Below, piece after piece: positions 40,539 through 64,000 of a DNA stretch of 64,000 nucleotides. The stretch is from Chloroflexota bacterium (GTDB taxonomy: Bacteria; Chloroflexota; UBA6077; JACCZL01): assembly GCA_020850535.1 (NCBI GenBank), contig JADZEM010000116.1, positions 45,419 through 109,418 of the forward strand, written 5' to 3'. A program made the position numbers and the translations under genes. The stretch's first letter is position 1. Each line of letters opens with the position of its first letter. The notes under the pieces were generated by a model. The model ran no database searches and was not told the DNA's origin. It saw only the letters and a list, made by a program, of their open reading frames with translations.

Positions 40539-40593
40539 CCCTACGGGTTCGGTCTGCCGCGCAGGCGAGAAGCCGACAGGCACCGGGCGTCGG

Positions 40594-44803: not shown

Positions 44804-44990
44804 CAGATCTCAGCCACCATCCCCACCACGTCCATCGTCTGCACGCCGGCTGGCGGCAGCGCTGCCCTGCCCCGCTCCGGACCATAATGATACGGGTCGG
44901 CGTCGCCTGCCTTTCGGTCTGTCGGGTAGAATCCGACGCTTCGGGCCGAGGATCCGCCGTCCGTCGCACCGCCGGAGGAGACCGCACCTC

Positions 44991-47276: not shown

Positions 47277-48553
47277 CCGCCCGTCCGCCAGCAGCCACCA
47301 GCGACAGCGCTGCCATGCTCGCTCGGTCGGAGGCGCAGTTGCGGGTGCTCCACGAGCTGCGCGTCGAAGCGCGTCTACGGCCAGACTTCGAGGCCCACTA
47401 CGTCGGCTTCCTACGTGCCCTGCGCGAGCGCCTTCACCCGCGCGGCGTCTACGACGCTCGCACGATTCGCCTGGCGAACGGCCTGACCTTCCAGGTCGAC
47501 CTGGGCGACCGGCTCGGGTGCGACGTGTTCTACGGCTACTACGATGAACGCTTTGAGGCTGGCCTGTTCGTGGAGCTGCTGGCGGCCGGCCAGACGATGT
47601 TCGACGTCGGGGCGAACTTTGGGTACTACGCCGTTCACTGCGCGCACGCCGTTGGCGCGGCAGGCGCGGTCCACGCCTTCGAGCCAGATCCCGCCGCCGC
47701 CGCCCTCCTCCGCGAAAATGCCTGTGCGAACGGGCTGGACGGCTGGCTGACGCACCACGCGGCAGCCGTCTCGGACCACAACGGCGCAACCGAGTACCAC
47801 CTTGCGGAGGAAGCGGCGTTCAGCGGCATGACCTCGACGGGCCGCTCGGCGGTGCGCGGGGTCGTACAGGTGCCGACGCGCAGCCTGGACTCAGTAGCAG
47901 CCGAGCATGGCGTCACGGCAATCGATGCCCTGAAGATCGATGTGGAAGGCCATGAGGCCAAGGTCTTGCGCGGAGCGGCTGGCCTGCTCGAGCGGTCACC
48001 CGACCCGCTGGTCATGCTGGAAGTGAGCGCGAAAAACCTGACGGACGAGGCTCGAAGCGCGCTGACGGCGGCGCTGCGGCCGATCTTTGCCGCTGGTTTC
48101 GTCGGGCTGATCCCCGACCTGTCCTCTGGTGCTGGACTGCGCGCAGTCATCACGCCGACTGAGGCCGCCAGCCTCCCCAGCGCAAACCTTCTCCTGGTCC
48201 GCGCGGGCGGCGAACGCGAGCGGCAGCTCCGGGCAGCGGTCGCCAGGCGACGGTCGACTGCCTCGCCGCTCCTCGACGTCGAGCCGGTCGACGCCGACGC
48301 CCGCGTGCTCCGGCTGGTGGCGGGGCCCGATCCAGAGTTCATCGCCGCCGCCCTGCGGGACAAGTCGGACGCGGAGGGGCGGGCGACCACGCTCGCCGCC
48401 GAGGTCAGCGAGCTGCGCACTGAGATCGGGCGGCTACGGGCCGAGCGCGCCGCGCTGCGGGCTGAGGTGCGTCGTCTGGGCTCCACACCGGTCGGACTGG
48501 CCGTTCGCGCAGCGCTGAAGCTTGCGCGGACGGTGGTGGGCGGTCAGCGCTAG
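47273..48553 (+). CDS. FkbM-family methyltransferase with C-terminal coiled-coil.
   Basis: MFDVGANFGYYAVH...HAFEPDP...KIDVEGHE. The start overlaps the ABC ATPase stop (ATGA). Confidence 0.75.
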   Translation: MTARPPAATSDSAAMLARSEAQLRVLHELRVEARLRPDFEAHYVGFLRALRERLHPRGVYDARTIRLANGLTFQVDLGDRLGCDVFYGYYDERFEAGLFVELLAAGQTMFDVGANFGYYAVHCAHAVGAAGAVHAFEPDPAAAALLRENACANGLDGWLTHHAAAVSDHNGATEYHLAEEAAFSGMTSTGRSAVRGVVQVPTRSLDSVAAEHGVTAIDALKIDVEGHEAKVLRGAAGLLERSPDPLVMLEVSAKNLTDEARSALTAALRPIFAAGFVGLIPDLSSGAGLRAVITPTEAASLPSANLLLVRAGGERERQLRAAVARRRSTASPLLDVEPVDADARVLRLVAGPDPEFIAAALRDKSDAEGRATTLAAEVSELRTEIGRLRAERAALRAEVRRLGSTPVGLAVRAALKLARTVVGGQR

Positions 48554-48568
48554 GCCGGGGCGCACGTC

Positions 48569-49702
48569 ATGCCGAGCCGCTCACTCCGCATCCTCTACGA
48601 CCACCAGATGTTCGCGCTTCAGCGGTTCGGCGGCATCACGCGCATCTTCGTCGAGCTGGCACGGCGGCTCTCGGCGCGCGACGACTGCGAGATCTACTGG
48701 CATCGTGGGTATCACCAGGACGGCTACGACGTCTCCGACTTCCAGGCCCGCCTGGCCCGCTACTGGAGCATCGACCGGCGGCCGCCAGTCATCGGCGGTT
48801 GGCCGCGCGAACGGATCAACCGCCACGCCTTCCGCTGCTTCGCCCGCACGATCTGGGGTGGCGTGGACATCTACCACCCGTCCTACTTCGAGGCTGGCCT
48901 GCTCGACATCCCCAGGACCGGGCACGTCGCCGTGACCGTCTACGACATGATCCTTGAGCGGTTCATGGCCGATCAGCCGCGCGTCCGGGCGCAGATCGCG
49001 GGGAAGCGCCGGCTGGTCGAGCGGGCAGACCTGGTGTTCGTGATCTCGGAGCACACCCGCCGGGACGTCGTCGAGTTGCTGGGCGTCGATCCCGCGCGGA
49101 CGGTCCTCACCTACCCGGCCAGCGACCTCGCCAGCGTGCCGGCCGCATCGCTCCCTCAGGGGTTGGTCGAACGGCCCTACCTGCTCTACGTGGGTCCGCG
49201 CTCGAAGTACAAGAACTTCCCGCTGCTGCTGGAGACGTTCCGTCAGTCTGCGTGGCTGCGGCGTGAGCTTCGCGTCGTCTGCCTGGGCGGCGGACCGTTC
49301 CTGGAGCCGGAGCAGCAGTTCCTGCGCGACCACGCCCTGACGGAGTGCTTCACGCAGGTGAGCGGCGACGACCGCATCCTCAAGGCCCTCTACGAGCGGG
49401 CCGTCGCGCTGGCCTGGACGAGCCACTTCGAGGGGTTTGGCATCCCGCCGCTCGAAGCGATGGAGGTCGGCTGCCCGGTCGTCTGCGCGCCGACCTCCTC
49501 GATGCCGGAGGTTGTCGGAGACGCCGCGCTGTTCTTCGATCCGGACCGCGCCGACGAGTTGGCCGAGCGCCTCCAACAGATCGCAGAGGACACGGCGCTG
49601 CGCCGACGGCTCATCGCCGGCGGCAGGGGCCGGGCGCGGCTGTTCTCGTGGGACGCGATGACGGCGGCCACCCTCGACGGCTACCGCCGGCTGGTACACT
49701 GA
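48569..49702 (+). CDS. Glycosyltransferase family 4 (GT-B, GT1-like).
   Basis: C-terminal EX7E region EGFGIPPLEAMEVGCPVVCAPTSSMPEVVGDAALFFDP. Confidence 0.8.
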   Translation: MPSRSLRILYDHQMFALQRFGGITRIFVELARRLSARDDCEIYWHRGYHQDGYDVSDFQARLARYWSIDRRPPVIGGWPRERINRHAFRCFARTIWGGVDIYHPSYFEAGLLDIPRTGHVAVTVYDMILERFMADQPRVRAQIAGKRRLVERADLVFVISEHTRRDVVELLGVDPARTVLTYPASDLASVPAASLPQGLVERPYLLYVGPRSKYKNFPLLLETFRQSAWLRRELRVVCLGGGPFLEPEQQFLRDHALTECFTQVSGDDRILKALYERAVALAWTSHFEGFGIPPLEAMEVGCPVVCAPTSSMPEVVGDAALFFDPDRADELAERLQQIAEDTALRRRLIAGGRGRARLFSWDAMTAATLDGYRRLVH

Positions 49703-49739
49703 CGCAGAGATCCATGCAGCCGAACGTGAGCGCCGCTCG

Positions 49740-50648
49740 ATGACCGCTTCCCCACCATCTGGCCCCATCCGACCGCTGGTGTCGGTCGTGATTGGCAGCT
49801 ACAACCGCCGACCGTTCTTGCAGCAGGCCATCGAGACCGTGCGCGAGAACGGGGCCAACCTGAGCTACGAGACCATCGTCGTGGACGGCGGCTCGACCGA
49901 CGGCTCGGTCGGCTGGCTGGTGAAGCAGAAGGACGTGGTCACCATCGTCCAGCACAATCGCGGCGAGTTTCGCGGCCAGCCGATCCGCCGCCGAAGCTGG
50001 GGCTACTTCATGAACCTCGGGTTCAAGAGCGCCCAGGGCCACTACATCCTGATGATCAGCGACGACTGCCTGCTGGTCCCCGGAGCGATGGAACGCGGAG
50101 TCGAGCATCTCCAGCAACTTAAGGCGGCCGGACGGAAGATCGGCGGTGGCGCGTTCTACTTCCGGAACTGGCCCAACGAGCGCGACTACTACGTGCAGCG
50201 CACGCTCGGCGGCAAGCTGATGGTCAACCACGGCCTCTACACACGCGTGGCACTGGAGGCGGTCGGCTTCGTGGACGAGGACCGCTACGGCTTCTACAAG
50301 GCAGACGGCGACCTGTGCCTCAAGATGTGGGAGGCCGGCTTCGAGGTGGTGGACTGCCCCGGCGCGTACGTGGAGCACTTCGAGGGCGCGAACCGGGCCG
50401 TTCGCAAGAGCAACCGCGAGCTGCTGGCGCGGGACCGCGAAGCGTATCGTCAGCGCTGGGAGGGCATTTTCTGGGATCCAGAAGGCCCTGAGCTGCGTGA
50501 CCAGTTGACGGCCGCGTTTGACGACCCGCACCGCACGGCCAGCCGCTTCCCGAGCGACGCGCCGCCCCTGCCAAAGCGCCTGGTGCGCCGGGCCGGCTCG
50601 ACCGGCAAGCGCGCGCTCGGCCACCTGACCCGGCTGGTCAATGCCTAG
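49740..50648 (+). CDS. Glycosyltransferase family 2.
   Basis: VSVVIGSYNRRPFLQQAIETV...ETIVVDGGSTDGS is a GT-A DXD-type N-terminus. Confidence 0.8.
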   Translation: MTASPPSGPIRPLVSVVIGSYNRRPFLQQAIETVRENGANLSYETIVVDGGSTDGSVGWLVKQKDVVTIVQHNRGEFRGQPIRRRSWGYFMNLGFKSAQGHYILMISDDCLLVPGAMERGVEHLQQLKAAGRKIGGGAFYFRNWPNERDYYVQRTLGGKLMVNHGLYTRVALEAVGFVDEDRYGFYKADGDLCLKMWEAGFEVVDCPGAYVEHFEGANRAVRKSNRELLARDREAYRQRWEGIFWDPEGPELRDQLTAAFDDPHRTASRFPSDAPPLPKRLVRRAGSTGKRALGHLTRLVNA

Positions 50649-52347
50649 CGCCGCGCGACTGCTCAAGCGGCTGCTGTCACGCCCAAGCGCCCCGCAGCCC
50701 GATCCGCTCCCGTCCGGCCACATCCTGCCAGACTGGAACGCCCTGCTCGACACCGACCGCGCCCTCTGGGAGCGCGCGAAAGCTCAGGCTCAGGCCGGCC
50801 CGGGCGTGCTGCTCGCCACGAACGTCGGCGGGCACTCGCCGGCCACGGTCGTCGAGAGCGTCCTGGCCGTGGCGCTGACGCTGCGCGGCGCACGCGTCCA
50901 CACGCTCGTCTGCGACAAGGTCATGCCGGCGTGCCTGCGAGCGCAGGCGGACAACGTCCTCGATCCCGGCGTCTTCTCTCGCTACGAGCTGCCAGAGAAG
51001 CTGTGCGGCAGTTGCTACCCCATCGGCGAGCACGTTTACGGGCCGCTCGGGCTGCCGCACCACCGATTCTCGGAGCTGCTCTCGCCGGACGAGCAGCGGG
51101 CCTGCCGCGCACTGGCCGACTCGACGCCCTACGAGGCGATCCCTGGCGCCATCGTGGACGGGCTGCCCATCGGGGAGCAGGCCTACGCCGGGGCGCTCCG
51201 CTACTTCGCGCGGGGCGACCTGGACGACGAGCCGTACGGCGAGAGCGTGCTGCGCCGCTACTTCGAGGCCTCGTTGCAGGCCGCCAGCGTGACCCGCTCG
51301 CTGCTCGCCACCCGCCGATTCGAGGCCGCCTGTATGCACCACGGCATCTACGTGCCCCAGGGCGTCAGCAGCGCCGTCGCGCGGCAGCTTGGCGTGCGCG
51401 TCTCGACCTGGAACCCGGCCTACCGCAGCAACTGCTTCATCTTCAGCCTACACGACACCTACCACCACACCCTGTTGGACGAGCCGACGGAGTCGTGGGA
51501 CACGATGCCCTGGACCGCCCAGATGGAAGAGCAGATCCTGAACTACCTCAAGAGCCGCTGGTCCGGCTCGCGTGACTGGATCTGGTTCCACGACCGTCCA
51601 GACGAGGACTTTGCGAAGTACGCCGCCGAGATCGGGCTGGACCTCGGGAAGCCGATCGTCGGGATGCTCTCCAACGTCATCTGGGACGCGCAACTGCACT
51701 ACCGTGCCAACGCCTTCCCGACTATGCTCGCCTGGGTGATCGAGACGATCCGGTACTTCGAGCGGCGGCCAGACCTCCAGCTGCTGCTGCGGGTCCACCC
51801 CGCCGAGCTGCGGGGCACGGCACGCTCGCGCCAGCCGCTGGTGGACGAGATCGCGCGGGCATTCCCGACGCTCCCGCCCAACGTCTTCATCATCCCGCCA
51901 GAGTCACAGGTCTCGACCTACGCCGCGATGGCCCAGGCGAACGCCGTCATCATCTTCGGCACCAAGACCGGCGTCGAGCTGACCTCGATGGGTATTCCCG
52001 TGATCGTGGCCGGCGAGGCCTGGATTCGGAACAAGGGGCTGACCCTCGACGCCAGCTCGGCGGCCGGCTACTTCGAGATCCTCGACGGCCTGCCACTGGC
52101 CGCGCGGATGCCGGCCGAACAGGTCGCCCGCGCCCGCAAGTACGCCTACCATTTCTTCTTCCGGCGGATGGTCCCGCTGGAGTTCATGGAGGTGACCGGC
52201 GCGTGGCCGCCCTACCGCGTGGCGCTCGAATCGCTCGGCGACCTGCTGCCTGGGCGGCACGCCGGGCTGGACATCATCTGCGACGGCATCCTGAACGGCT
52301 CGCCGTTCATCTACCCGGCCGAGGAGCTGGGCGTTCATGACCGCTGA
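50641..52347 (+). CDS. Large GT-B-like protein of unassigned family, paralog A (possibly KpsC/KpsS 'capsule polysaccharide biosynthesis' type).
   Basis: 568 aa and soluble. The C-terminal half has a Rossmann-like NAVIIFGTKTGVELTSMGIPVIVAGEAW. The N-terminal half is Cys-rich: HTLVCDKVMPACLR...CGSCYP. It overlaps its neighbours by 8 and 11 nt. The family assignment is not verifiable from sequence alone. Confidence 0.5.
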   Translation: MPSAARLLKRLLSRPSAPQPDPLPSGHILPDWNALLDTDRALWERAKAQAQAGPGVLLATNVGGHSPATVVESVLAVALTLRGARVHTLVCDKVMPACLRAQADNVLDPGVFSRYELPEKLCGSCYPIGEHVYGPLGLPHHRFSELLSPDEQRACRALADSTPYEAIPGAIVDGLPIGEQAYAGALRYFARGDLDDEPYGESVLRRYFEASLQAASVTRSLLATRRFEAACMHHGIYVPQGVSSAVARQLGVRVSTWNPAYRSNCFIFSLHDTYHHTLLDEPTESWDTMPWTAQMEEQILNYLKSRWSGSRDWIWFHDRPDEDFAKYAAEIGLDLGKPIVGMLSNVIWDAQLHYRANAFPTMLAWVIETIRYFERRPDLQLLLRVHPAELRGTARSRQPLVDEIARAFPTLPPNVFIIPPESQVSTYAAMAQANAVIIFGTKTGVELTSMGIPVIVAGEAWIRNKGLTLDASSAAGYFEILDGLPLAARMPAEQVARARKYAYHFFFRRMVPLEFMEVTGAWPPYRVALESLGDLLPGRHAGLDIICDGILNGSPFIYPAEELGVHDR

Positions 52348-53152
52348 CGCCTTGCTGGATCGACTGGGCCGGCTGCCGGTCGGTCGGCTGGTGTCGCCAG
52401 CGCGCCGCCGCTGGCTGTTGAAGCTGCTGCAGCGGCGCGCGCGTCGGTACGGCTATTCGCTGGTGCCGGCCCCGCCGCCAACGGCTGGCGTGGCACAGTG
52501 GGACATCTGGACGTGGGTGCGCGCCACCTCGACCATCCGGACCGTCGTAGACATCGGCGCGAACGACGGCGTCTACGCCCGCTACCTGAACGAGTTCTTT
52601 CGCCCGGCCGCCGTGCACGCGTTCGAGCCGCTGCCCGGCTGCCAGCCGAAGCTCGCCGCGCTGAAGCGGGAGATGCCAAACGTCACGCTGCATCAACTGG
52701 CGCTCTCCGATCGCGCTGGCGAGGCGACGTTCTACAGCAACGAGTATGCGCCGGCCTCTTCGCTGCTCGAAGTGAGCGCCGTGTCCCGCCGCGCCTTCCC
52801 CGAGACCGAGCGCGCGACGGCCACCGCCGTCCAGGTGGCGCGCCTCGACGACGTGCTGCCAGCAGACTCGCTCGAACGCGACATCCTGGTCAAGATCGAC
52901 GTCCAGGGCGTCGAGGACCGGGTGATCCGGGGCGGGCGCGCGCTCTTCTCGGCGGCATCCGTCGTGCTGATCGAGATGGCCTTCGTCGCCGTCTACGAGA
53001 ACCAGCCGCTCTTCGAGGAAGTCCACACCCTGCTCGCCGGGTGCGGCCTGCGGCTGGCCGGCTTCAAGAATCAGATCGACGACGCCGAGAGCGGCCAGCC
53101 CCTCTTCGCGCACTGCCTGTACCGCCGCCCCGACCACCGAACGCCAGACTGA
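52337..53152 (+). CDS. FkbM-family methyltransferase (second copy).
   Basis: VVDIGANDGVYARYL...HAFEPLP...KIDVQGVE. Confidence 0.75.
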   Translation: MTADALLDRLGRLPVGRLVSPARRRWLLKLLQRRARRYGYSLVPAPPPTAGVAQWDIWTWVRATSTIRTVVDIGANDGVYARYLNEFFRPAAVHAFEPLPGCQPKLAALKREMPNVTLHQLALSDRAGEATFYSNEYAPASSLLEVSAVSRRAFPETERATATAVQVARLDDVLPADSLERDILVKIDVQGVEDRVIRGGRALFSAASVVLIEMAFVAVYENQPLFEEVHTLLAGCGLRLAGFKNQIDDAESGQPLFAHCLYRRPDHRTPD

Positions 53153-53340
53153 CCTGGGAGCCATCGTTGCGGCCTGCTACCGTCTTCCCCGATCGTGGCC
53201 GGTTCGGCCGGTACGTCGGCCATGTCCTATCATCCTCTGCGCGATTCCAGACCGAAAGCCGTAGGTAGACGCTCCTTGCTGGTGAACTCGCTCGATTCAG
53301 GACCGGCCTGTCGCGCGGATCGGCCGCCGCGAGGCCGCTC

Positions 53341-55059
53341 GTGAACCCGATCATCCGCCGAGCGCGGACCGCTGTCGCCCGGGCGCTGGGACGCCGACGC
53401 AAGGGTGTGCCGACAGCGCACGATCCGCGCTTCCCGGACTGGCAACAGATCCTGGCCGCCAACCGCGAGCAGTGGGACGCTGCCCGGCGGCGCGCGGCCG
53501 GCGGCCCGCCGGTGCTGGTCGCCAGCACGGTCGGCGGGTACGGCGCCGGCTCGGTGTTCGAGAGTATGCTGTCTGTGGCGCTGACCCTGCGGGGCGCGCG
53601 CGTGCACACCCTGCTCTGCGACCGCGCCCTGCCCGGCTGCCAGCGGGCCGAGTACACGGACGTGCCAGACCCGCGCGTGCTGGTGGACTACCAGTTGCCG
53701 GACCGCCTCTGCGATGGCTGTTTCGCCACCGGCCGCTACAACTTCGCGCCGCTCGGCCTGAGCGACCACCGGGTCGGGGCGCTGGCGTCGCGGGCTGAGA
53801 AACACGAGGCCCGTCGCATCGCGAACGAGACCCCCATCGGCGAGATCCGGGACTTCGCCTGGAATGGCCTGAACATCGGCGAGCACGCCTACGCTGGCGC
53901 GCTCCGCTACTTCGCGCGGGGCGACCTGGAAGCTGAGGCGCTGGGCGAGCCGGTCCTGCGCCGCTACCTGGAAGCCTCGATCCTGATGGCCGCCGCCTCA
54001 ACCCGGTTGATCCAGCAGGAAGGCATCCAGATCGCCGCGTTCAACCACGGGCTGTACGTGCCGCAGGGCGTCCTCGGGGAGGTCTGCCGGCGGCTCGGCG
54101 TGCGGGTTGCCAACTGGAACCCGGCCTACCGCACCTCCTGCTTCATCTTCAGCCACGGCGACACCTATCACCACACGCTGATGGCCGAGCCAACCGAAGC
54201 CTGGGACACGATGGCGTGGACGCCGGCGCTCGAAGCCCAGATTCAGGCGTACCTGAAGAGTCGGTGGTCGGGCTCGCGGGACTGGATCTGGTTCCACGAC
54301 GAGCCAGACGAGGATTTCGCGGCGTATGCCCGCGAGGTCGGCCTGGATCTCAAGAAGCCGATCGTTGGGCTGCTCACCAACGTGATGTGGGACGCCCAGC
54401 TGCACTACCCGGCCAACGCCTTCCCGAGCATGCTGGACTGGGTGCTCCGCACCATCGAGTGGTTCAAGGGCCGTCCCGATCTCCAGCTGCTGATTCGGGT
54501 GCATCCCGCCGAGATCCGAGGGACAGCCCGCTCGCGGCAGCCCCTGGTGCCGGAGATCGAGAAGGCGTTCCCAGACCTGCCGCCGAACGTCTTCATCATC
54601 CCGCCCGAGTCGCAGATCTCGACCTACGCCGCCGTGGCGACCGTGAACGCGGCCATCATCTACGGCACCAAGACGGGCGTCGAGCTGACCTCGTCCGGCA
54701 TCCCGACCATCGTGGCGGGCGAGGCCTGGATCCGAAACAAGGGCATCACCCTGGACGCCTCGTCCCCAGACGACTATTTCGGCATCCTCGACACGCTGCC
54801 GCTCGCGGGCCGGATGCCGCCCGAGCAGATCGAACGGGCCCGCCAGTACGCCTTTCACTTCTTCTTCCGACGGATGGTGCCGGTGCCGGCGATGGTCCCC
54901 ACCAAAGCCGTTCCGCCGTTCCGCGTCGCCATCGACTCGCTGGACGATCTGCTGCCCGGCAAGCAGCCGGGCCTGGACATCATCTGTGACGGCATCCTGC
55001 GCGGCTCGCCGTTCATCTACCCGGCCGAGACCTACGGGCTCCACGACGATGGACGGTAG
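53341..55059 (+). CDS. Large GT-B-like protein of unassigned family, paralog B.
   Basis: 572 aa, collinear with paralog A. For example, NPAYRTSCFIFSHGDTYHHTLMAEPTEAWDTMAWT versus NPAYRSNCFIFSLHDTYHHTLLDEPTESWDTMPWT. GTG start after a 189-bp gap. Confidence 0.5.
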   Translation: MNPIIRRARTAVARALGRRRKGVPTAHDPRFPDWQQILAANREQWDAARRRAAGGPPVLVASTVGGYGAGSVFESMLSVALTLRGARVHTLLCDRALPGCQRAEYTDVPDPRVLVDYQLPDRLCDGCFATGRYNFAPLGLSDHRVGALASRAEKHEARRIANETPIGEIRDFAWNGLNIGEHAYAGALRYFARGDLEAEALGEPVLRRYLEASILMAAASTRLIQQEGIQIAAFNHGLYVPQGVLGEVCRRLGVRVANWNPAYRTSCFIFSHGDTYHHTLMAEPTEAWDTMAWTPALEAQIQAYLKSRWSGSRDWIWFHDEPDEDFAAYAREVGLDLKKPIVGLLTNVMWDAQLHYPANAFPSMLDWVLRTIEWFKGRPDLQLLIRVHPAEIRGTARSRQPLVPEIEKAFPDLPPNVFIIPPESQISTYAAVATVNAAIIYGTKTGVELTSSGIPTIVAGEAWIRNKGITLDASSPDDYFGILDTLPLAGRMPPEQIERARQYAFHFFFRRMVPVPAMVPTKAVPPFRVAIDSLDDLLPGKQPGLDIICDGILRGSPFIYPAETYGLHDDGR

Positions 55060-55957
55060 GCGGCTGGCGCGTGGGGCGCGACGCGTCGTGCGACGCCTCG
55101 CGCACGAGGTCAAGGAGCAGGTCCGCCCGACCCCTCCCCCGCCCTCCCCCGTCGAGCTGTATCTCGCAGGCGGGCGCGTGCCCTGGAGCGAGGGCTACGG
55201 GCGGTATCGGCGTGAGGTGACCGTCAAGGCCCTCAACGACCCTGACCTGATGCGTCGGTTCCGCGGCGGCGAGCCGCTCCCCGAGGGCTACGGCAGCAAG
55301 CTCGACGAGCGCGTGGTTGAGTATCCGTGGGTGCTCTCGCGGCTGCCTGACGGCCCGGGCACGCTGCTCGACGCCGGCTCGACGCTCAGCTATCCGTTTA
55401 CACTGGAGCTGGCGTCCGTGGCGGCCAAGAAGCTGGTGGTGGTGACACTCGCGCCCCCCGCCCACATGGCCCACGCCGCCAACGTCTCGTACCTGTTCGA
55501 CGACCTCCGCAATCTGATGCTGCGCGACGCCGTGTTTGATACCGTGGTATGCATCAGCACGCTGGAGCACATCGGCCTGGACAACACGCAGCTCTACTCC
55601 GAGGATGCCCGCTTCGCCGAGCACAACCTGTCCGGCTACCAGCCGGCCCTGGACGAGTTGCGCCGCGTCCTGAAGCCGGGCGGCACGCTGCTGCTGACGG
55701 TGCCCTTCGGCAAAGCCGAAGACCACGGCTGGCTGCAGCAGTTCGACCGTGACGGGATCGGGCGGATCGTCGGGCGGTTCGGCGGCGCGCTGGTCAGCGA
55801 GGCGTACTTCGCGCATGGGCCGGCCGGCTGGCAGGTCACGACTGCCGAGGCCTGCGCCGACGCTCACTACTTCAACGTCCACGCCAGCAAGGAGCCGGCC
55901 CCGGACGGCGCCGCCGCCGCGCGCGCGGTGTGCTGCCTGGAGCTGGTCAAATCGTGA
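55049..55957 (+). CDS. SAM-dependent methyltransferase.
   Basis: LLDAGSTLSYPF (motif I-like) ... VLKPGGTLLLTVPFG. ATG 55049 overlaps the upstream gene by 11 nt. Confidence 0.6.
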   Translation: MDGRRLARGARRVVRRLAHEVKEQVRPTPPPPSPVELYLAGGRVPWSEGYGRYRREVTVKALNDPDLMRRFRGGEPLPEGYGSKLDERVVEYPWVLSRLPDGPGTLLDAGSTLSYPFTLELASVAAKKLVVVTLAPPAHMAHAANVSYLFDDLRNLMLRDAVFDTVVCISTLEHIGLDNTQLYSEDARFAEHNLSGYQPALDELRRVLKPGGTLLLTVPFGKAEDHGWLQQFDRDGIGRIVGRFGGALVSEAYFAHGPAGWQVTTAEACADAHYFNVHASKEPAPDGAAAARAVCCLELVKS

Positions 55958-57297
55958 GCACCCCACCGGGCGGCAGCACGGGCCAGAGTCCCCCGACGGG
56001 CCAGAGTCCGCTGACGGTGGCGATCAACGCCCAGGTGAACCCGGCCAACGCCGGCGGCGTCGAGTCAGCGCTCCAGGGGCTGATCACCTACCTCAGCGAG
56101 CTGCCGCTGGAGGAGCGCTATCTGCTGCTCTCGACGGTCAAGTACGCGCCGTCGATGGAGAAGCTGGCGGCCGGCAAGCTCCAGGTCGTCCCCTGGCCCT
56201 TCCCGCAGAAGGCGTACGCGCCATACCGCAGCATGACGCGGCGCTGGTCGCGGTGGCAGGCGCGGGCCGGCGCGCTCGGGCCGGGTGTGGACGCCCTGCA
56301 CTGGAGCTGGTGGCAGGCCCGCCGCGCGATGGCCCGCAACCCGAACGCCCGCCAGTCGGACGCCTTCCTGCACTCCCGCGGGGTCTCGGTGGTGCATTTC
56401 GCCTACGGCGTCCGCTTCGGCACCACGCTGCCGTTCCTGTACGAGCCGTGGGACTTGCAGCACCGTCACTATCCAGAGTTCTTCAAGCCGGGCGAGTGGG
56501 AGTGGCGCGACCAGCTGTACCGTGAGGGGTGCGAGCAGGCGACGCTGGTCGTCACGGCGACACGCTGGACGAAGCGCGACATCATCGAGCAGTACAAGAT
56601 CCCGGCCGAGCGGATCGCCGTGATCCCACGCGGCCCCTGGGTGACGCCGACCATGCCCGGCCCGCGCGATGTCGAGAAGGTCCGCAAGCAGTACGGGCTG
56701 CCGAGCAAGTTCGCGTTCTACCCGGCGATGAGCTTCCCGCACAAGAACCATCTGCGGCTGTTCGAGGCCCTGGCGATCCTGCGCGACCGCCACGGCCTGA
56801 CGCTGCCGCTGGTCTGCACCGGCCGCCAGTACGAACCGTACTGGCCGGAGCTGCTGGCCGGCGTCGAGCGGTTCAACCTGCAACGTCAGGTCTTCCTGCT
56901 GGAGTCGGTGCCGGCCGACACGTTGGCGGCCATCTTCAAGTCCGCGTCGCTGCTGGTGTTCCCATCGCTGTTCGAGGGGCTGGGGCTGCCAGTGATCGAA
57001 GCCCTGGAGTACGAGTTGCCGGTGGTGTCGTCGCGGGCGACCTGCCTGCCGGAGGTGGCCGGCGACGCTGCGCTCTACTTCGACGGCAGCGACGTGGATT
57101 CGATCGTCGATGCCCTGCTGCGGGCCGAACGCGATCCAGACTCGCTCAAGGCCGCCAGACGGGCCGCGCCGGCCGCCCTCGCCCGATTCTCCTGGCCGAA
57201 AGCGGCCCAGACGTTCATCGCCTGCTACCGGGCGGTGGGCGGCGCGCCACTGACGGCGGAGCAGCAAGCCCTCTATCAGGAAGCCATCGAAGCATGA
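55954..57297 (+). CDS. Glycosyltransferase family 4 (second copy).
   Basis: SLFEGLGLPVIEALEYELPVVSSRATCLPEVAGDAALYFD. GTG 55954 overlaps the upstream stop (GTGA). Confidence 0.8.
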   Translation: MSTPPGGSTGQSPPTGQSPLTVAINAQVNPANAGGVESALQGLITYLSELPLEERYLLLSTVKYAPSMEKLAAGKLQVVPWPFPQKAYAPYRSMTRRWSRWQARAGALGPGVDALHWSWWQARRAMARNPNARQSDAFLHSRGVSVVHFAYGVRFGTTLPFLYEPWDLQHRHYPEFFKPGEWEWRDQLYREGCEQATLVVTATRWTKRDIIEQYKIPAERIAVIPRGPWVTPTMPGPRDVEKVRKQYGLPSKFAFYPAMSFPHKNHLRLFEALAILRDRHGLTLPLVCTGRQYEPYWPELLAGVERFNLQRQVFLLESVPADTLAAIFKSASLLVFPSLFEGLGLPVIEALEYELPVVSSRATCLPEVAGDAALYFDGSDVDSIVDALLRAERDPDSLKAARRAAPAALARFSWPKAAQTFIACYRAVGGAPLTAEQQALYQEAIEA

Positions 57298-58244
57298 ATG
57301 CTGCGCCGTTGACGCTGTCGCCTGTCGATCCTTCTGTCAAACTCGCCGTCGTGCTTGGCACCTACAACCGCCTCGACAGTCTCAAGATCTGCATCGACAG
57401 TATCGTTGCCCAGACACGGACGCCGACCATCGTCTACGTGTCCGATGCCGGTTCCACGGATGGCACCGTCGAGTACCTGCAGTCCATCGCCTCGGATCGG
57501 CTGGTGCCGATCCTGGTCGGCAGGAAGCTCGGCCAGGCGCGCGCGTACAACGACGTCTTCATGGCGCTCACCACACCGTACGTCGTCTGGATCTCAGACG
57601 ACAACAAGATCGTGAATCACGGGCTGGACCGTGCGGTAGACATCCTCGACCACATGCCGAAGGTCGGGATGGTCGGCGTAAAGGTGAAGGATGTCGAAGG
57701 GCCGTTCACCGAAGCGCCGTACCTGGGGGCGGTGTCGTCCATCGGCATCCTGAACGTCAACCAGGGGATGCTGCGGACGCACGCGCTCCAGCAGGTCGGC
57801 GGCTTCAGCGAGCGCTTCCGCGACTACGGCATCGACCCTGACCTGACGGCGAAGATCCTGTTCGATGGCTGGGACGTGGCCTACACGAAGGCCGTCGGCA
57901 TCCACCACTACCGGGCCTGGGCAGACGGCTCGGCGGCCAGCGGGGAGCAGCGCGCCCGCCAGCTTGGCTACGTCAACCTCTACGCCGAGAAGTGGGGCCA
58001 GTACGCCCCGCCCGATCTGCTCTGGAAGGCGCGCAAGAAGGCCTGGGGCGCGTTCCAGAAGGCGACCGGCCTGCGGATCAACTCGTCACGCACGATCCTG
58101 GGCCTGAACGGCCGCGACTGGTGCAACCTACTGACGGGGCGCTACATCTGCCTGCTGGACGCCCTCCAGAACCGGCGCCGGCCGTACCACCTGCTCCAGC
58201 GAGCGCCCCGCTGGAGCCGCCCGCTGCCGCCCGACCCTGCCTGA
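57294..58244 (+). CDS. Glycosyltransferase family 2 (second copy).
   Basis: LAVVLGTYNRLDSLKICIDSIVAQTRTPTIVYVSDAGSTDGT. ATG 57294 overlaps the upstream stop (ATGA). Confidence 0.75.
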   Translation: MNAAPLTLSPVDPSVKLAVVLGTYNRLDSLKICIDSIVAQTRTPTIVYVSDAGSTDGTVEYLQSIASDRLVPILVGRKLGQARAYNDVFMALTTPYVVWISDDNKIVNHGLDRAVDILDHMPKVGMVGVKVKDVEGPFTEAPYLGAVSSIGILNVNQGMLRTHALQQVGGFSERFRDYGIDPDLTAKILFDGWDVAYTKAVGIHHYRAWADGSAASGEQRARQLGYVNLYAEKWGQYAPPDLLWKARKKAWGAFQKATGLRINSSRTILGLNGRDWCNLLTGRYICLLDALQNRRRPYHLLQRAPRWSRPLPPDPA

Positions 58245-59672: not shown

Positions 59673-59721
59673 GGCGCTCACCCCCCGGCCTCCGGGGGCC
59701 GGGGGCCGGGGGGTGAGCGCC
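59673..59721. terminator. Bidirectional intrinsic terminator hairpin between convergent antiporter and transketolase genes.
   Basis: Perfect 18-bp inverted repeat ggcgctcaccccccggcc / ggccggggggtgagcgcc with a 13-nt loop, seen in the sequence. Confidence 0.6.
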
Positions 59722-59743: not shown

Positions 59744-61660
59744 TCAGGAGCGGTGGCCGAGCGACGACGCGATGGTGTCCGCGAGGCTCCGGGCGTCCAG
59801 GCCGTGGTAGCGCAGCACCTCGTCGTTGGTGCCGCAGGCCGGGATCGAGCGGATGCCCAGCGGCAGGCCGCGCGGCGGCGTCGGCAGGCCGAACCGCGAC
59901 ACCTGGCTGAGCAGGTACTCGCCCTGGCCGCCCCAGACGTAGTGGTTGTCCAGGGTCACCAGCAGCGGGTAGCCATCCACCGTCTGCCGCAGCCACTCCG
60001 AGTCGATGCGGTTCAGCCACGGCAGGTTGACGACCTTCAGGCCGATGCCGCGCTCGGCGAGCAGGCGGGCCGCCTCGACCGCCTGCGGCAGCAGGACCGG
60101 GCCGTACCCGACGAGCACCGCGTCCTTGCCCCCGGTCAGGGCCACGCCGCGCCCCTCGACAAACTCATAGTCGTCCGGCAGCGTGTACGGGATCGTGCAG
60201 GGGATCGAGACGAGGCGCAGGTAGACCGAGTGCCGCGCCTGGGTCAGCGCAAACTCGGTCGCCAATGTCGTCTCGGCCTCGCAGGACGGCTCGATCAGGA
60301 TCAGGCCCGGCACCGACGCCAGCGTCGCGATGTCGCGGACCGACTGATGCGAGTGGCCCGGACCGCCCGGCACCACGCCCGCCAGCGACCCGACGTACAC
60401 GACCTTCGTGCGCTCGGTGGACTGGTTGTAGATCTGCTCGTTCGGACGCGTCGAGAGGAAGCAGGCGAACGAGTGGCAGACCGGCAGCATGCCGGCCAGC
60501 GCCAGGCCGCTGGCCTGGGAGACCATGTCCTGCTCGGCGATGCCGCACTCGATGAAGCGATCCGTGAACCGCTCCTCGAATTCGAGCAGGCCAGTGTCCA
60601 GCACGAGGTCGGCGTCGAGCGCGACGATCTTCGGGTCGTTGGCGGCAGCCGCCACCAGTGCCTTCGAGTAGGCCGGCACCATCCGCTGCACCGTGCCCGG
60701 GGCCGGGCGGTCGGGGAACGGCGCCGACTCCAGCGCCAGCTCGGCCTGCCCGGCTTCGCGGAGGAGCCGGTTGGCGGTAGCGATCAGCTCGTCGGCCATC
60801 TTCTCGTGGACATCGGGGGCCGGCGCGCCGCTGTGGAATTTGTAGAGGCGGTCGGTCGGAGCCATCGCCGTGTGCTCGGCAAACGAGACGCCGCGCCCCT
60901 TGATCGTGTCGGCCACGATGATCTTCGGCTTGTTGCGCTCGGCGCGCACGGCCGTCAGCGCCCGCTTGAAGTCGGCCAGATTGTGGCCGTCGCAGCGGTC
61001 CACGGCCCAGCCGTAGGCCCGCAGCTTCCCGACCAGGTCGCCCAGGCTGTTGACGCGCTCCACCAGCGTGTCAGACTGCACCTTGTTGTGATCCACGATC
61101 ACGGTGATCTCGTGGAGGCCGTGGTTCACGGCGCCGGGCAGGGACTCCCAGAACTGGCCTTCCTGTAGCTCGCCGTCGCCGGTCAGGACATAGACCTCGC
61201 CGTTCCGACCTTGCAGCCGGTTCGCCTGCACGAAGCCTTTCGCCTTCGAGATGCCCATGCCGAGCGAGCCGGTGTTGGCGAAGATCCCCGGTGTGTCGAT
61301 GTCCGGGTGGCCCGGCAGGCCGTCGAGCCGCCGCAGCGTGTGGATGCTCTCGAACGGCAGCCGCCCCAGCCCGATCAGCACCGAGTACAGGGCCGGCACG
61401 TCGTGGCCCTTGGAGCTGAAAAAACGATCCACCGGCGTCTCGCGCTCGTCCGCGAGCCGCAGCTCCTCCAGGTGCAGCCAGGAGAGAATGTCCAGGCTGC
61501 TGAAGGTGCTCCCCAGGTGTCCGGAGCCGGCTTTACCGATCATGTAGAGCGCGTTGATCCGGCAGGCAGCGGCGAAAATGGCGGCACGCTCGACCGCGCC
61601 AACCCGGAGGCTGCGAAGGCGCTCCAACTCGGCGGCCGGGACATAGACAAGCTCGGTCAT
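59744..61660 (-). CDS. Transketolase-family TPP enzyme (N- and C-terminal sections fused in one 638-aa chain).
   Basis: GKAGSGHLGSTFSSLDIL (TPP-binding N-section). GDGELQEGQFWES. The C-section has the Pyr and transketolase C domains (...GSLAGVVPGGPGHSHQSVRDIA...). Confidence 0.8.
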   Translation of the reverse strand: MTELVYVPAAELERLRSLRVGAVERAAIFAAACRINALYMIGKAGSGHLGSTFSSLDILSWLHLEELRLADERETPVDRFFSSKGHDVPALYSVLIGLGRLPFESIHTLRRLDGLPGHPDIDTPGIFANTGSLGMGISKAKGFVQANRLQGRNGEVYVLTGDGELQEGQFWESLPGAVNHGLHEITVIVDHNKVQSDTLVERVNSLGDLVGKLRAYGWAVDRCDGHNLADFKRALTAVRAERNKPKIIVADTIKGRGVSFAEHTAMAPTDRLYKFHSGAPAPDVHEKMADELIATANRLLREAGQAELALESAPFPDRPAPGTVQRMVPAYSKALVAAAANDPKIVALDADLVLDTGLLEFEERFTDRFIECGIAEQDMVSQASGLALAGMLPVCHSFACFLSTRPNEQIYNQSTERTKVVYVGSLAGVVPGGPGHSHQSVRDIATLASVPGLILIEPSCEAETTLATEFALTQARHSVYLRLVSIPCTIPYTLPDDYEFVEGRGVALTGGKDAVLVGYGPVLLPQAVEAARLLAERGIGLKVVNLPWLNRIDSEWLRQTVDGYPLLVTLDNHYVWGGQGEYLLSQVSRFGLPTPPRGLPLGIRSIPACGTNDEVLRYHGLDARSLADTIASSLGHRS

Positions 61661-61720
61661 GCGGATGGTTCCTCAGAATGGGCGCAGAATGAGTGGGCCA
61701 ACCGGTGGCCCCGAGTGAGA

Positions 61721-62488
61721 CTAGACATCGACGGGGTACGGGGTCGCCGTGACTGGCGGCAGGCTCGCCTCGCCGGTCGAGAGCAGGTACTCGGCGTAGA
61801 TCCAGTCGGCCACGTCGTTGACGTCGTACCCCTCGTCGCCCTCGGAGATGAAGGGCACGTACGAGTCGCCGGCGATGGTCCGGTTCTCGAAGATCACCCG
61901 GCTCCAGGCGATCTCCAGACTGGCGTTCTGGATGTAGACCTCGGGGAGCGTCGGGTACTGGCTGCTGTGCCAGGGCTGCTCCTTCGGGCCGATGGGCAGC
62001 AGCGGGAACATCCGGTGTCCACGCACCACCCACATCTTGCCGGGGTGCTGCTTGCACTTCTCGACGGCCCGCAGCGAATCGACGCCGTCCTCAGCCAGGA
62101 AGGTGTCCCAGGCTCGACGAATGGTGTGGGCCTTGCGGAACGGGCTGGTGGGGCGCAAAATCGCGAAGCAGTCGTAGTTGCGGCCCTCGTCGCGCAGCCG
62201 ACCGAGCGTGTACTCGATCCACTCGATGTCGGGGGAGCGGTCGCCGGCGTACTCCTCGGGCCGCAGGAACGGCACGGACGCGCCGTAGTGCGTGGCGATG
62301 TCCGCGAACTGCTGCGAGTCCGTCGAGACGATCACTTCGCCGAAGATACCGCTCTCGACCGCCGCCGCGATGGTATAGGCGATGACGGGGTGGCCGGCCA
62401 GCGGCTTGATGTTCTTGTTCTTGACGCGCTTGGAGCCGGCCCGGGCCGGGATCAGGCCGACGATACTGGGGGTGCGCTCGCGAGGCAT
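61721..62488 (-). CDS. CMP-sugar cytidylyltransferase (CMP-N-acylneuraminate / CMP-Kdo synthetase family, NeuA/KdsB-like).
   Basis: VGLIPARAGSKRVKNKNIKPLAGHPVIAYTI is the signature N-terminus of the CTP_transf_3 family. Confidence 0.8.
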   Translation of the reverse strand: MPRERTPSIVGLIPARAGSKRVKNKNIKPLAGHPVIAYTIAAAVESGIFGEVIVSTDSQQFADIATHYGASVPFLRPEEYAGDRSPDIEWIEYTLGRLRDEGRNYDCFAILRPTSPFRKAHTIRRAWDTFLAEDGVDSLRAVEKCKQHPGKMWVVRGHRMFPLLPIGPKEQPWHSSQYPTLPEVYIQNASLEIAWSRVIFENRTIAGDSYVPFISEGDEGYDVNDVADWIYAEYLLSTGEASLPPVTATPYPVDV

Positions 62489-62527
62489 AGTCGTCCCCTC
62501 CGGCGAAGGAGTGTACCAGAGGAGTTA

Positions 62528-63058
62528 TCAGTCATCCTTCTCCGCGTTCAGAACACCTGGATGCACGGGCGAGACTCGCAGGCCAGCTGCGTGGAGACCT
62601 TTCCAGAGCAGCTTGTGTGTTCGCGCTTCCACCATCGTCGACGGGTCTTCCCACGCAATCGCACTGATCTCGTCCTGATCCTGGCGCCACTGTGGGTCTT
62701 GTTCGCCATCGACATAGCCGTGAAACAGCAACTGCAGCGAGCGCACGAAGCTCTGGTCTCTGTGCATGAGAAAGTTCCACTCAAGGATGCAGAGCGGGTC
62801 GTCGGCGGCAGCGACGAAGCGATACCCTGTTTCCTCCCAGCACTCCCGGATCGCAGCGTCAAACACCGATTCGCCCGGTTCGACCTCGCCGCCCGGTGGG
62901 TCCCATCGGCCCACACCTGGCGTTTCCACGACGAGCACCCTGCCGTCGTCGCGTGCAGCGAGGACGTAGCTGGCAACCCGCCAGGGAACCGGCGAGACAC
63001 CGTCGTACAGCCGCCGCTCACCGAGATGGTTCGAGAAGAGCGTCCCCGCTAGCACCAC
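62528..63058 (-). CDS. NUDIX hydrolase.
   Basis: Nudix box GGEVEPGESVFDAAIRECWEETG. Confidence 0.8.
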   Translation of the reverse strand: MVLAGTLFSNHLGERRLYDGVSPVPWRVASYVLAARDDGRVLVVETPGVGRWDPPGGEVEPGESVFDAAIRECWEETGYRFVAAADDPLCILEWNFLMHRDQSFVRSLQLLFHGYVDGEQDPQWRQDQDEISAIAWEDPSTMVEARTHKLLWKGLHAAGLRVSPVHPGVLNAEKDD

Positions 63059-63121
63059 CGCGACACTCCCTCGTGCAGCAGATCGGCACGATGCACACGC
63101 GTCGGGGACCGAAAGCCCCGC

Positions 63122-63934
63122 CTACCAGACGGTGATACCGCCGTCCACCTGGAGGTTGATGCCCGTCACGTAGGCCGAGGCGTCCGACGCCAGGAAGACC
63201 AGCGGGCCGACCAGATCGCTCGCAACCGCCATCCGGCGCAGCGGGATCTTGGCGTTGAGCTTCGCCTTGAACTCCTCGTCCTGGCCGCCCAGCACGCCGC
63301 CCGGAGAGAGCGCATTGACGCGGACGCCCCGCGGTCCCCAGAACCCTGCCAGGTACTTCGTCATGTTCAAGACGGCCGCCTTCGACGCCCCGTAGGCTGG
63401 CGGCTTCAAGAACGGCGGATCGAAGCCGAGATGGTCGTAGAGGCGCATGTCGGGCGAGATCACGGCGTACATCGAGCCGATGTTGACGATGGACCCGCGC
63501 CCAGCCTTCGCCATCTCGGTGCCGAAGACCTGGGACACCTGGAACGTCCCGAACGTGTTCACCTGCAGCACGCGCTGGAAAACGTCCGGCGGGATCTCGT
63601 CGATCTCGTACTGCGGAGCGTCGGTGTTCGGCGGCTGATCGATCCCGGCGTTGTTCACCAGCACGTGCGGCACGCCGAGATCGGCGAGGATCGCGTCGCG
63701 GGCGGCGTCGAGCTGCGCGCGATCACGCACGTCGGCGCGGTAGAGGCGCAGCCGGTCCTTGCCGTACTGCCCCTGCAGCGTCTCGAACTCGCCCGCGACG
63801 GGCGCACCTGCCAGGTCGACGCCGGCAACCGTCGCGCCGGCGTCGAGCAGGCCGCCGATCCAGATCGGGCCGAGCTTGCCGAGCGCCCCCGTGACGACGC
63901 CGACCCGCCCGGCCAGTGGCTGTGCTTCACTCAC
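63122..63934 (-). CDS. SDR family oxidoreductase.
   Basis: GRVGVVTGALGKLG (Rossmann). YGASKAAV (YxxxK). Confidence 0.85.
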   Translation of the reverse strand: MSEAQPLAGRVGVVTGALGKLGPIWIGGLLDAGATVAGVDLAGAPVAGEFETLQGQYGKDRLRLYRADVRDRAQLDAARDAILADLGVPHVLVNNAGIDQPPNTDAPQYEIDEIPPDVFQRVLQVNTFGTFQVSQVFGTEMAKAGRGSIVNIGSMYAVISPDMRLYDHLGFDPPFLKPPAYGASKAAVLNMTKYLAGFWGPRGVRVNALSPGGVLGGQDEEFKAKLNAKIPLRRMAVASDLVGPLVFLASDASAYVTGINLQVDGGITVW

Positions 63935-63949
63935 GGTCGAATGCCGTCC

Positions 63950-64000
63950 TCAGCGCGCGTCCACGCTGGCAGCGACCGGCGAGGCCGTTGCCCCGAGATG
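63950..64000 (-). CDS. 3' end of an upstream minus-strand gene (partial, about 17 codons in window).
   Basis: A TGA stop is on the minus strand at 63950-63952, 15 nt upstream of the SDR start, and the open frame continues to the window edge. The product is unknown. Confidence 0.25.
   Translation of the reverse strand, partial: HLGATASPVAASVDAR

Follow-up and report, generated by a model that had tools for sequence, protein, structure and literature searches.

The end of the stretch of Chloroflexota DNA analyzed here (64,000 nucleotides, hereafter the window) holds four minus-strand genes, at 59744-63934, that encode a fused transketolase-like, thiamine diphosphate (ThDP)-dependent enzyme (TK-like), a cytidylyltransferase (CT), a Nudix hydrolase, and a short-chain dehydrogenase/reductase (SDR), and the question raised by this locus is what a transketolase-like enzyme does in the company of an enzyme that activates sugars with CMP. 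A preliminary description of the cluster had proposed that the transketolase builds a ketose backbone, which the SDR reduces and the CT activates. The four open reading frames (ORFs) that it had delimited, with gaps of 60 nt (TK/CT), 39 nt (CT/Nudix), and 63 nt (Nudix/SDR), were confirmed exactly, and its four family assignments are correct according to Pfam; in NCBIfam, none of the four proteins attained the curated score of any characterized equivalog. The explanation that we consider best, with a probability of roughly 0.55 for the whole of it, is that the operon really has five genes in the order NeuB-SDR-Nudix-CT-TK, the last four of which lie in the window, and that its products would make a CMP-activated nonulosonic acid whose side chain is trimmed by the SDR and the TK-like enzyme.

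We scanned one genome per species with the CT alignment as the query and counted as relatives those proteins that carry the signature peptides of the family. Such relatives were found in 575 species genomes from many phyla, nearly all of uncultured organisms. Gene content was counted in the best 80 of the 575, all of them metagenome-assembled genomes (MAGs), which were mapped with reference proteins; 52 loci served as the denominator for genes upstream of CT and 60 for the TK gene downstream (single loci are cited below by L numbers). These 80 genomes belong to Chloroflexota, Desulfobacterales, Acidobacteriota, Methylomirabilis (L052 and L053 are from Candidatus Methylomirabilis), Chromatiaceae/Thiohalobacter, Armatimonadota, Latescibacterota, Aminicenantes, and Myxococcales, and the consensus order of their genes is (HAD phosphatase)-NeuB-SDR-(ALDH)-CT-TK, ALDH being an aldehyde dehydrogenase. 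Upstream of CT, NeuB was present in 50 of 52 loci, SDR in 49 (94%), ALDH in 38 (~73%), and a KdsC-type HAD in 30. A full-length TK gene followed CT on the same strand in 46 of 60 loci, within 500 nt in 42 of them, and the count rises to 48 when one frameshifted and one split copy are added; a fused TK gene that looks frameshifted lies at 10874-12790 of L066. The proteins of the cassette are 56-93% identical across phyla. CT homologues number in the thousands and are 65-94% identical across phyla, the best of them (70-94%) in Chloroflexota and other MAGs.

In L006, the closest relative, the genes are arranged NeuB-SDR-CT-TK, with a CT 93% and an SDR and TK 83 to 84% identical to those of the window, and the same arrangement in L001 encodes proteins 80-85% identical to the window's. 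L004 begins with a NeuB/HAD fusion followed by SDR-ALDH-CT-TK, and L002, from an Anaerolineae genome, reads NeuB-HAD-SDR-x-ALDH-CT-TK and continues with a gene for a 565-amino-acid (aa) protein. The product marked x, a 458-aa protein encoded at 7145-8521 of L002 between SDR and ALDH, has no Pfam or NCBIfam match and was not seen elsewhere. By gene content and order, the window operon is one copy of a cassette that is widespread and apparently unstudied; in the full-text literature searched, no publication brought transketolase together with NeuB, with NeuA, or with gene clusters for nonulosonic acids, which is not proof that the cassette is undescribed.

A reciprocal scan of metagenomes from the TK family returned more than 586 relatives. 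Among 63 TK-centered loci with upstream sequence, the orthologous CT lay upstream in 43 (adjacent in 40), and 59 carried other cassette genes, those without CT mostly SDR, ALDH, or NeuB; TK stood alone in 4. A variant from metagenomes (L153, L157, L161, and L165) reads SDR-TK-ALDH-NeuC-(NeuB)-CT, with SDR-TK-ALDH contiguous; its NeuB and CT, which are more canonical, share no more than 33-40% identity with those of the main type, and its TK has the substituted pocket of the window enzyme described below. In view of these four loci, SDR-TK-ALDH behaves as a module attachable to different nonulosonic-acid cores. A split TK (N and C subunits) takes the place of the fused one between SDR and ALDH in an Aminicenantes locus (L015, 4650-6466); we set it aside as evidence, for it is of a different, more canonical type that retains the Arg/Ser/His positions.

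The first gene of the operon is, on this evidence, probably a NeuB-family ulosonic-acid synthase cut by the window edge. A tblastn search of the 64-kb window found no complete NeuB, KdsA, or PseI gene and no other NeuB-like sequence. Between the SDR start and the window edge, however, there remain 66 nt, and they hold the 3' end of another ORF, whose last 51 nt, read on the SDR strand, translate to HLGATASPVAASVDAR and a stop, with 15 nt left before SDR begins. The NeuB proteins of relatives end in EQLGAAVSPAGAGVSNNGSR (L001) and EHIGAAATAATARS (L006), each followed by a stop, and match this tail; the match comprises 16 low-complexity residues, and the identification rests mainly on synteny, NeuB lying immediately upstream of SDR in 50 of 52 related loci. 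Given the matching tail and the position of NeuB in relatives, the apparent absence of a synthase is an artefact of where the window ends. The absence of a NeuB/PseI-type synthase, as first described, is thus not borne out, and with it falls the premise on which a backbone built by the transketolase had depended. The NeuB of relatives is a clear member of its family in profile scans, yet it falls short of the cut-offs for NeuB and PseI.

The CT matches Pfam CTP_transf_3 (PF02348; 1e-20, 74.9 bits vs. a cut-off of 22.6), with only the N-terminal 75 positions aligning. Its CTP-binding motif, PARxGSKRxxxKN, reads IPARAGSKRVKNKN in the window protein and aligns with the NeuA structures 9ftb and 1eyr; P14, A15, R16, G18, S19, R21, K25, and N26 are invariant in the family. 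The best NCBIfam model, PseF, gave 136 bits, below its cut-off of 205.7, and the KdsB models gave 30-42 bits against cut-offs of 155-281. Against known structures, the family profile gave E values of 1e-27 to 1e-20 for NeuA but no better than 4e-9 for KdsB. The CT is, by these profile matches, a NeuA-type CMP-ulosonic-acid synthetase of a highly conserved group and no orthologue of PseF or KdsB, so that its earlier placement in the NeuA/KdsB family holds and a canonical KdsB is ruled out. Its NeuB neighbor, present in 50 of 52 relatives, is seen here only as the 16-residue edge fragment. NeuA-type enzymes activate 2-keto-3-deoxy acids, and the product is probably, as first suggested, a CMP-activated keto-sugar acid.

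In the TK-like enzyme, one polypeptide joins Transketolase_N (2e-31), Transket_pyr (3e-28), and Transketolase_C (3e-15) according to Pfam. Its scores lie below every NCBIfam transketolase and DXS cut-off (best model NF004559, 350 bits vs. 488; dxs, 162 vs. 466), and the best PDB match is human transketolase (TKT), with which the family profile aligns at 9e-101 (4kxu), in agreement with an independent MAFFT alignment. Residues H48, H86, R110, H118, D162, N192, K254, H276, E376, and H438 are invariant or nearly so. Among them, H48, H86, R110, H118, K254, and H276 equal H37, H77, R100, H110, K244, and H258 of the PP domain of human TKT, catalytic residues near the donor ketol (PMC8016368). Also retained are the GDG...N ThDP/metal motif and the cofactor Glu (E376), with His in place of human Q428.

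The substitutions fall in Pyr-domain residues lining the distal substrate channel. Active-site residues around the xylulose 5-phosphate-ThDP adduct of human TKT include R318, S345, H416, D424, and R474 (PMC8016368). Of these, R318 is deleted in the family profile (Val328 in the window), S345 is an invariant Asp355, H416 is Leu or Tyr (426), D424 is Pro434, and R474 is Ile or Gly (486); in addition, a conserved Glu of TKT is replaced by Arg442. From yeast, E. coli, and human transketolase structures, we take R318, S345, H416, and R474 to bind phosphate and D424 to bind a hydroxyl. Since four phosphate-binding residues and the stereo-determining Asp are lost, the TK-like protein does not appear to be a pentose-phosphate enzyme, and central pentose phosphate metabolism, the alternative setting named in the preliminary description, is ruled out for the operon. 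The protein resembles short human-type TKT (EC 2.2.1.1) in its fold of three domains, in the GDG...N motif and cofactor Glu, and in all catalytic His, Arg, and Lys residues of the PP domain, whereas the pocket is replaced and the context is glycan biosynthesis rather than central metabolism. Judged from sequence, the enzyme should still carry out ketol transfer, though not on sugar phosphates, and we propose that it moves a two-carbon ketol unit to or from a sugar side chain. DXS-like chemistry with pyruvate as the donor was considered and is less likely, as the His residues that hold the C1-OH of the donor are all conserved.

The SDR matches Pfam adh_short_C2 (2e-42) and also adh_short, and it has the motifs VTGALGKLG (TGxxxGxG), NNAG, and Y181-GAS-K185 (YxxxK), all invariant in the family. 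Its best NCBIfam models are sugar-acid dehydrogenases and a PRK09186-type oxidoreductase (130 bits, below the cut-off). The best PDB match is 6UH2, at 3e-34 with the single sequence and at 2.5e-53 with the family profile, compared to 4e-42 for the next structure, and as a relative it stands well ahead of gluconate 5-dehydrogenase. In the molecular replacement for ElaC, 6UH2 served as the search model. ElaC is an SDR for which reduction of CMP-8-keto-legionaminic acid at C8 has been proposed, and in it S145, Y147, Y168, and K172 are accompanied by a loop, V150-P165, that its authors propose to bind CMP (PMC13656337). The window SDR has S154-x-Y156, as in ElaC, and a long loop before Y181/K185. 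The spacing from Ser to Tyr, typically about 13 in SDRs, is 27 in the window SDR and 23 in both ElaC and 6UH2. We propose by this analogy that it is a classical SDR of an ElaC/PtmA-like subgroup that oxidizes or reduces the penultimate carbon (C8) of the nonulosonic acid.

The likeness extends to the setting. ElaABC of Acinetobacter baumannii KL49 and Vibrio vulnificus, proposed to epimerize CMP-legionaminic acid at C8 (PMC13656337), likewise pairs an SDR with a NeuA-type CT in a nonulosonic-acid locus, and the window SDR resembles it in its nearest solved relative, 6UH2, in S-x-Y, and in the extended Ser-Tyr loop. ElaABC, however, includes the Gfo/Idh/MocA oxidase ElaA, which the cassette lacks, having instead the TK-like enzyme and often ALDH, and the cassette sugar is probably 9-hydroxylated, of the 2-keto-3-deoxynononic acid (Kdn) or Neu type, rather than 9-deoxy-diamino.

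The remaining enzymes of the relatives bear on the nature of this sugar. Their HAD is of the KdsC/Kdn-9-phosphate phosphatase type, once fused to NeuB and below curated cut-offs, and the best model for their ALDH, at a score well below its cut-off, is 2-ketoglutarate-semialdehyde dehydrogenase, which acts on a 2-keto-acid aldehyde. The main cassette includes no gene for an aminotransferase, acetyltransferase, or dehydratase. We infer that the core pathway yields a C9 acid resembling Kdn, its 9-OH free, by way of a 9-phosphate where HAD is present.

The Nudix gene encodes a protein that matches Pfam NUDIX (1e-17) and has an intact box, GX5EX7REUXEEXGU, which reads GEVEPGESVFDAAIRECWEETGY; in NCBIfam it reaches no specific equivalog, and the ORF is identical, at the same length, to an NCBI-annotated protein of a Chloroflexi MAG (P0241). 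A Nudix homologue was found in none of 160 related cassettes (80 from genomes and 80 from metagenomes). Homologues 75-80% identical stand beside PMT_2 (GT-C) genes outside NeuB cassettes (L086-L089). The GC content at third codon positions (GC3) is 0.73 in this gene vs. 0.91-0.93 in TK, CT, and SDR (genome GC, 69%), and the high values mark these three as strongly coding. Its absence from all 160 loci, its lower GC3, and the position of its homologues beside PMT_2 genes indicate that the Nudix gene is a lineage-specific insertion, so the suggestion that it is a member of the pathway did not hold up. Nudix and PMT_2 may form a separate functional pair. The window has a PMT_2 gene of its own at 39072-40670 (minus strand). 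The junction between SDR and CT is variable in relatives, measuring 37 nt in L006, 287 nt in L001 (9714-10000), ~840 nt in L091 (3608-4449), and 3.8 kb in L008 (6157-10001), and the inserts of L008 and L091 have no Pfam match; the spot that holds the Nudix gene in the window is thus filled in relatives with unrelated, unannotatable sequence.

A pathway that would use each of these enzymes can be drawn as follows. NeuB would condense phosphoenolpyruvate with a hexose or hexose-6-phosphate to a C9 2-keto-3-deoxy acid of the Kdn/sialic type with a free 9-OH, from which HAD, where present, would remove the 9-phosphate, and CT would form the CMP-sugar, before or after tailoring. The SDR would oxidize the 8-OH, which creates a terminal CH2OH-CO-CHOH ketol; in 8-keto Kdn this ketol is D-threo, the configuration accepted by transketolases. 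The TK-like enzyme would cut between C7 and C8 and take up the two-carbon unit, leaving a C7 sugar with an aldehyde at C7, which ALDH, where present, would convert to a dicarboxylic ulosaric acid; in the window operon, which has no ALDH, another enzyme would presumably reduce or oxidize the aldehyde. Finally, KpsC-like transferases would add the CMP-sugar to a glycan exported by Wzm/Wzt. The loss of the Asp that binds the C4-OH of the donor fits such a substrate, because the corresponding C6 bears the ring oxygen of the pyranose. We favor the cleavage direction as the parsimonious one, since SDR, TK, and ALDH would each catalyze their usual reaction and no extra enzyme is called for. 3-Deoxy-D-lyxo-heptulosaric acid (Dha) was considered as the product and is not claimed, as Kdn trimmed at C7-C8 would by its stereochemistry yield L-arabino and not D-lyxo.

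Several points weigh against this explanation. About 20% of the cassettes have no TK within 10 kb and no visible replacement; downstream of CT in L038, L049, L051, L072, and L077, a Pfam search for a substitute found only a GT4 glycosyltransferase, Arg-tRNA synthetase, and unassigned proteins. In the 43 loci with both flanks, TK and ALDH occurred together in 28, TK without ALDH in 10, ALDH without TK in 4, and neither in 1; with TK-less cassettes and ALDH lacking TK, the three tailoring genes are not strictly co-dependent. The window itself has neither ALDH nor HAD by tblastn, which makes the end product here especially uncertain, and its NeuB is represented by the 16 residues plus synteny. 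The likeness of the SDR to ElaC is indirect, through 6UH2, as the ElaC sequence was not among the PDB matches, and the role of ElaC as a C8 reductase was derived from structures and docking, not assays (PMC13656337). The identity of the sugar, its carbon number, and the substrate of the TK-like enzyme are all points that we infer, and loss of the phosphate pocket would disfavor the usual phosphorylated two-carbon acceptors as well.

Four other explanations were weighed against side-chain trimming. It is unlikely, though well worth considering, that the TK-like enzyme and SDR act before NeuB, making a non-phosphorylated aldose, for example from an oxidized sugar acid or ketose, for NeuB and CT to use with no tailoring afterwards. 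The SDR does also resemble gluconate 5-dehydrogenase and mannonate oxidoreductase, makers of ketols that a transketolase can cleave, the lost phosphate pocket is consistent with non-phosphorylated substrates, and gene order cannot separate upstream from downstream roles. However, the KdsC/Kdn-9-phosphate-type HAD of 30 of 52 loci points to a phosphorylated NeuB substrate drawn from central metabolism, unfit for a transketolase with no phosphate site; the clearly best structural relative of the SDR is of the ElaC type and not a sugar-acid dehydrogenase; and SDR-TK-ALDH also joins a NeuC-NeuB-CT set that has an aldose supply of its own.

Doubtful to a greater degree is chain extension, in which the TK-like enzyme would add a two-carbon ketol, e.g., from hydroxypyruvate, to an aldehyde of the ulosonic acid and the SDR would reduce the ketone, giving a CMP-acid of C11 or similar length. 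In its favor, hydroxypyruvate is a phosphate-free transketolase donor, and ElaC-type SDRs have been proposed to be ketone reductases. CMP-ulosonic acids with backbones longer than C9, of unexplained biosynthesis, have moreover been detected in Magnetospirillum (bioRxiv 10.64898/2026.04.20.719630). Extension would, however, require an extra enzyme to turn the primary alcohol into the acceptor aldehyde, and there is none in the cassette; the frequent ALDH would have no role or a competing one; and the Magnetospirillum sugar is apparently longer by one carbon, not two.

The pathway of the preliminary description, with a transketolase-built ketose, reduction by SDR, activation by CT, the Nudix protein included, and no NeuB-type synthase, is in keeping with the tight spacing of the four genes and with a window that lacks a complete NeuB or KdsA, but it is highly improbable given NeuB upstream in relatives, its C-terminal fragment at the window edge, the activation of 2-keto-3-deoxy acids by NeuA-type enzymes, and the absence of Nudix from 160 cassette loci. 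That the TK is an ordinary pentose-phosphate enzyme adjoining the operon by chance can practically be dismissed despite its complete three-domain architecture and its best PDB match to human TKT, as four phosphate-binding residues and the hydroxyl-reading Asp are replaced invariantly across the family, the score is 350 bits vs. 488, below every NCBIfam TK cut-off, and the gene is tightly linked with CT, NeuB, SDR, and ALDH across phyla.

The cassette can also be compared with known Kdn and sialic acid pathways. NeuB, the HAD of many copies, and the NeuA-type CT have counterparts in the Kdn-9-phosphate synthase, phosphatase, and CMP-Kdn synthetase of Bacteroides, and the variant cassette has the NeuC-NeuB-CT set of NeuC-NeuB-NeuA pathways, but the NeuB, CT, and HAD score below the curated cut-offs of the characterized equivalogs, and to this core the cassette adds SDR (94%), TK-like (~80%), and ALDH (~73%). 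To our knowledge, these three have no counterpart in Kdn or sialic acid pathways, and none was found in the literature searched. The cassette would appear to encode a pathway to a CMP-nonulosonic acid that includes a ThDP-dependent tailoring step without precedent.

Bacterial surfaces are capped by nonulosonic acids (sialic, legionaminic, and pseudaminic acids and Kdn), which affect recognition by hosts, phages, and neighboring cells, and the tailoring known so far consists of acylation, methylation, and epimerization. If the pathway is right, a change of the nonulosonic carbon skeleton by a ThDP enzyme would be new chemistry. A stronger statement, which we put forward tentatively and at less than even odds, is that a ThDP enzyme derived from transketolase edits an activated sialic acid-like backbone, by removal of two carbons after C8 oxidation by the ElaC-like SDR or the reverse, that the result is a C7 aldehydic or dicarboxylic ulosonic acid, a surface sugar of a kind undescribed in bacteria, that more than 500 species, mostly uncultured and of at least 8 phyla, carry the cassette for it, and that KpsC-like enzymes of an unclassified family install the product. 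Because the cassette is highly conserved and occurs in uncultured groups of environmental importance (Chloroflexota, Desulfobacterales, Acidobacteriota, Methylomirabilis, and sulfur-oxidizing Gammaproteobacteria), its product is likely a common, unrecognized part of environmental cell envelopes or extracellular polymers. Given that surveys by mass spectrometry have reported CMP-ulosonic acids of unexplained backbone length, it offers a concrete gene set for backbone editing; further leads are a natural transketolase scaffold for non-phosphorylated substrates and a large uncharacterized family of KpsC-like glycosyltransferases.

Features of the window that bear on the operon and the adjacent glycan locus
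Feature	Positions	Strand	Length	Basis or remark
ABC-transporter-dependent glycan assembly locus	44887-58244	+		Pfam; convergent with the sugar operon
KpsC-like protein 1 (565-aa family)	50641-52347	+	568 aa	
KpsC-like protein 2 (565-aa family), paralogue	53341-55059	+	572 aa	63% identical to protein 1
GC-rich hairpin	59673-59721			23-nt arms, 3-nt loop; TK and Na+/H+ exchanger genes converge on it
TK-like (fused transketolase-like ThDP enzyme)	59744-61660	-	638 aa	Pfam
Cytidylyltransferase (CT)	61721-62488	-	255 aa	Pfam CTP_transf_3
Nudix hydrolase	62528-63058	-	176 aa	Pfam NUDIX
SDR	63122-63934	-	270 aa	Pfam adh_short_C2
3' end of an ORF crossing the window edge, putative NeuB C terminus	63950-64000	-	16 codons + stop	

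The four genes are probably one transcription unit, as the preliminary description had it. Consensus scans found no promoter or terminator within the cluster, which is consistent with a single unit, and these scans were uninformative overall. At the other end, the hairpin beyond the TK gene is a near-perfect inverted repeat (I1) with arms 96% complementary and no T-tract, which is why the scan for consensus terminators missed it; it probably stops transcription in both directions and marks the 3' end of the operon.

The glycan locus encodes, in order, a Wzm permease, a Wzt ATPase (Wzt_C), an FkbM methyltransferase, GT4 and GT2 glycosyltransferases, the first KpsC-like protein, a second FkbM methyltransferase, the second KpsC-like protein, a methyltransferase, and again GT4 and GT2. 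The 565-aa protein that follows TK in L002 is 53-55% identical to both KpsC-like copies of the window by tblastn, and members of this family stand directly after TK in many cassettes. The adjacency of the family to CT-TK in other genomes supports the view that the operon feeds the glycan locus, and that it supplies this neighbor, as had been suggested, is probable, with two KpsC-like copies in the locus.

The predicted fold of the 565-aa family is closest to those of KpsC and WbbB; a profile of the family found no meaningful sequence match in the PDB, and fold comparison alone makes the link. Pfam Capsule_synth (PF05159) gave 16.1 bits for copy 1 against a cut-off of 20 and nothing for copy 2, and a few members do carry a precomputed PF05159 match. 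The family is large and highly conserved, with thousands of metagenomic members and no Pfam domain above threshold; its members are named "capsule biosynthesis protein" at NCBI. In KpsC and WbbB, the motifs are an Asp nucleophile in QxxxKD and a His-Pro for CMP binding; the 565-aa family has an invariant H386-P387 (RVHPAE) and D349, which may or may not correspond to those sites. In predicted fold and in its Wzm/Wzt context, the family resembles KpsC/KpsS (GT107) and WbbB (GT99), retaining beta-Kdo transferases that take CMP-Kdo as donor in capsule and O-antigen pathways dependent on ABC transporters, but its members are ~250 residues longer than a KpsC domain, sequence identity is 12-13%, and their donor is presumably not Kdo. 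Altogether, the KpsC-like proteins are candidate, and likely, transferases that use the CMP-sugar. The family also has invariant cysteines (C91, C98, C122, and C125) that could form a metal site.

At 44887-48553 (plus strand), Wzm and Wzt, the latter an ATPase with a Wzt_C domain of carbohydrate-binding type, precede an FkbM methyltransferase. Such an arrangement accompanies recognition of a chain-terminating residue in O-antigen systems, and here the cap could be the CMP-sugar or else a methyl group. Further along the locus, the methyltransferase ORF at 54986-55957 overlaps the end of the gene for KpsC-like protein 2 by 74 nt (54986-55059), and its true start is probably further downstream.

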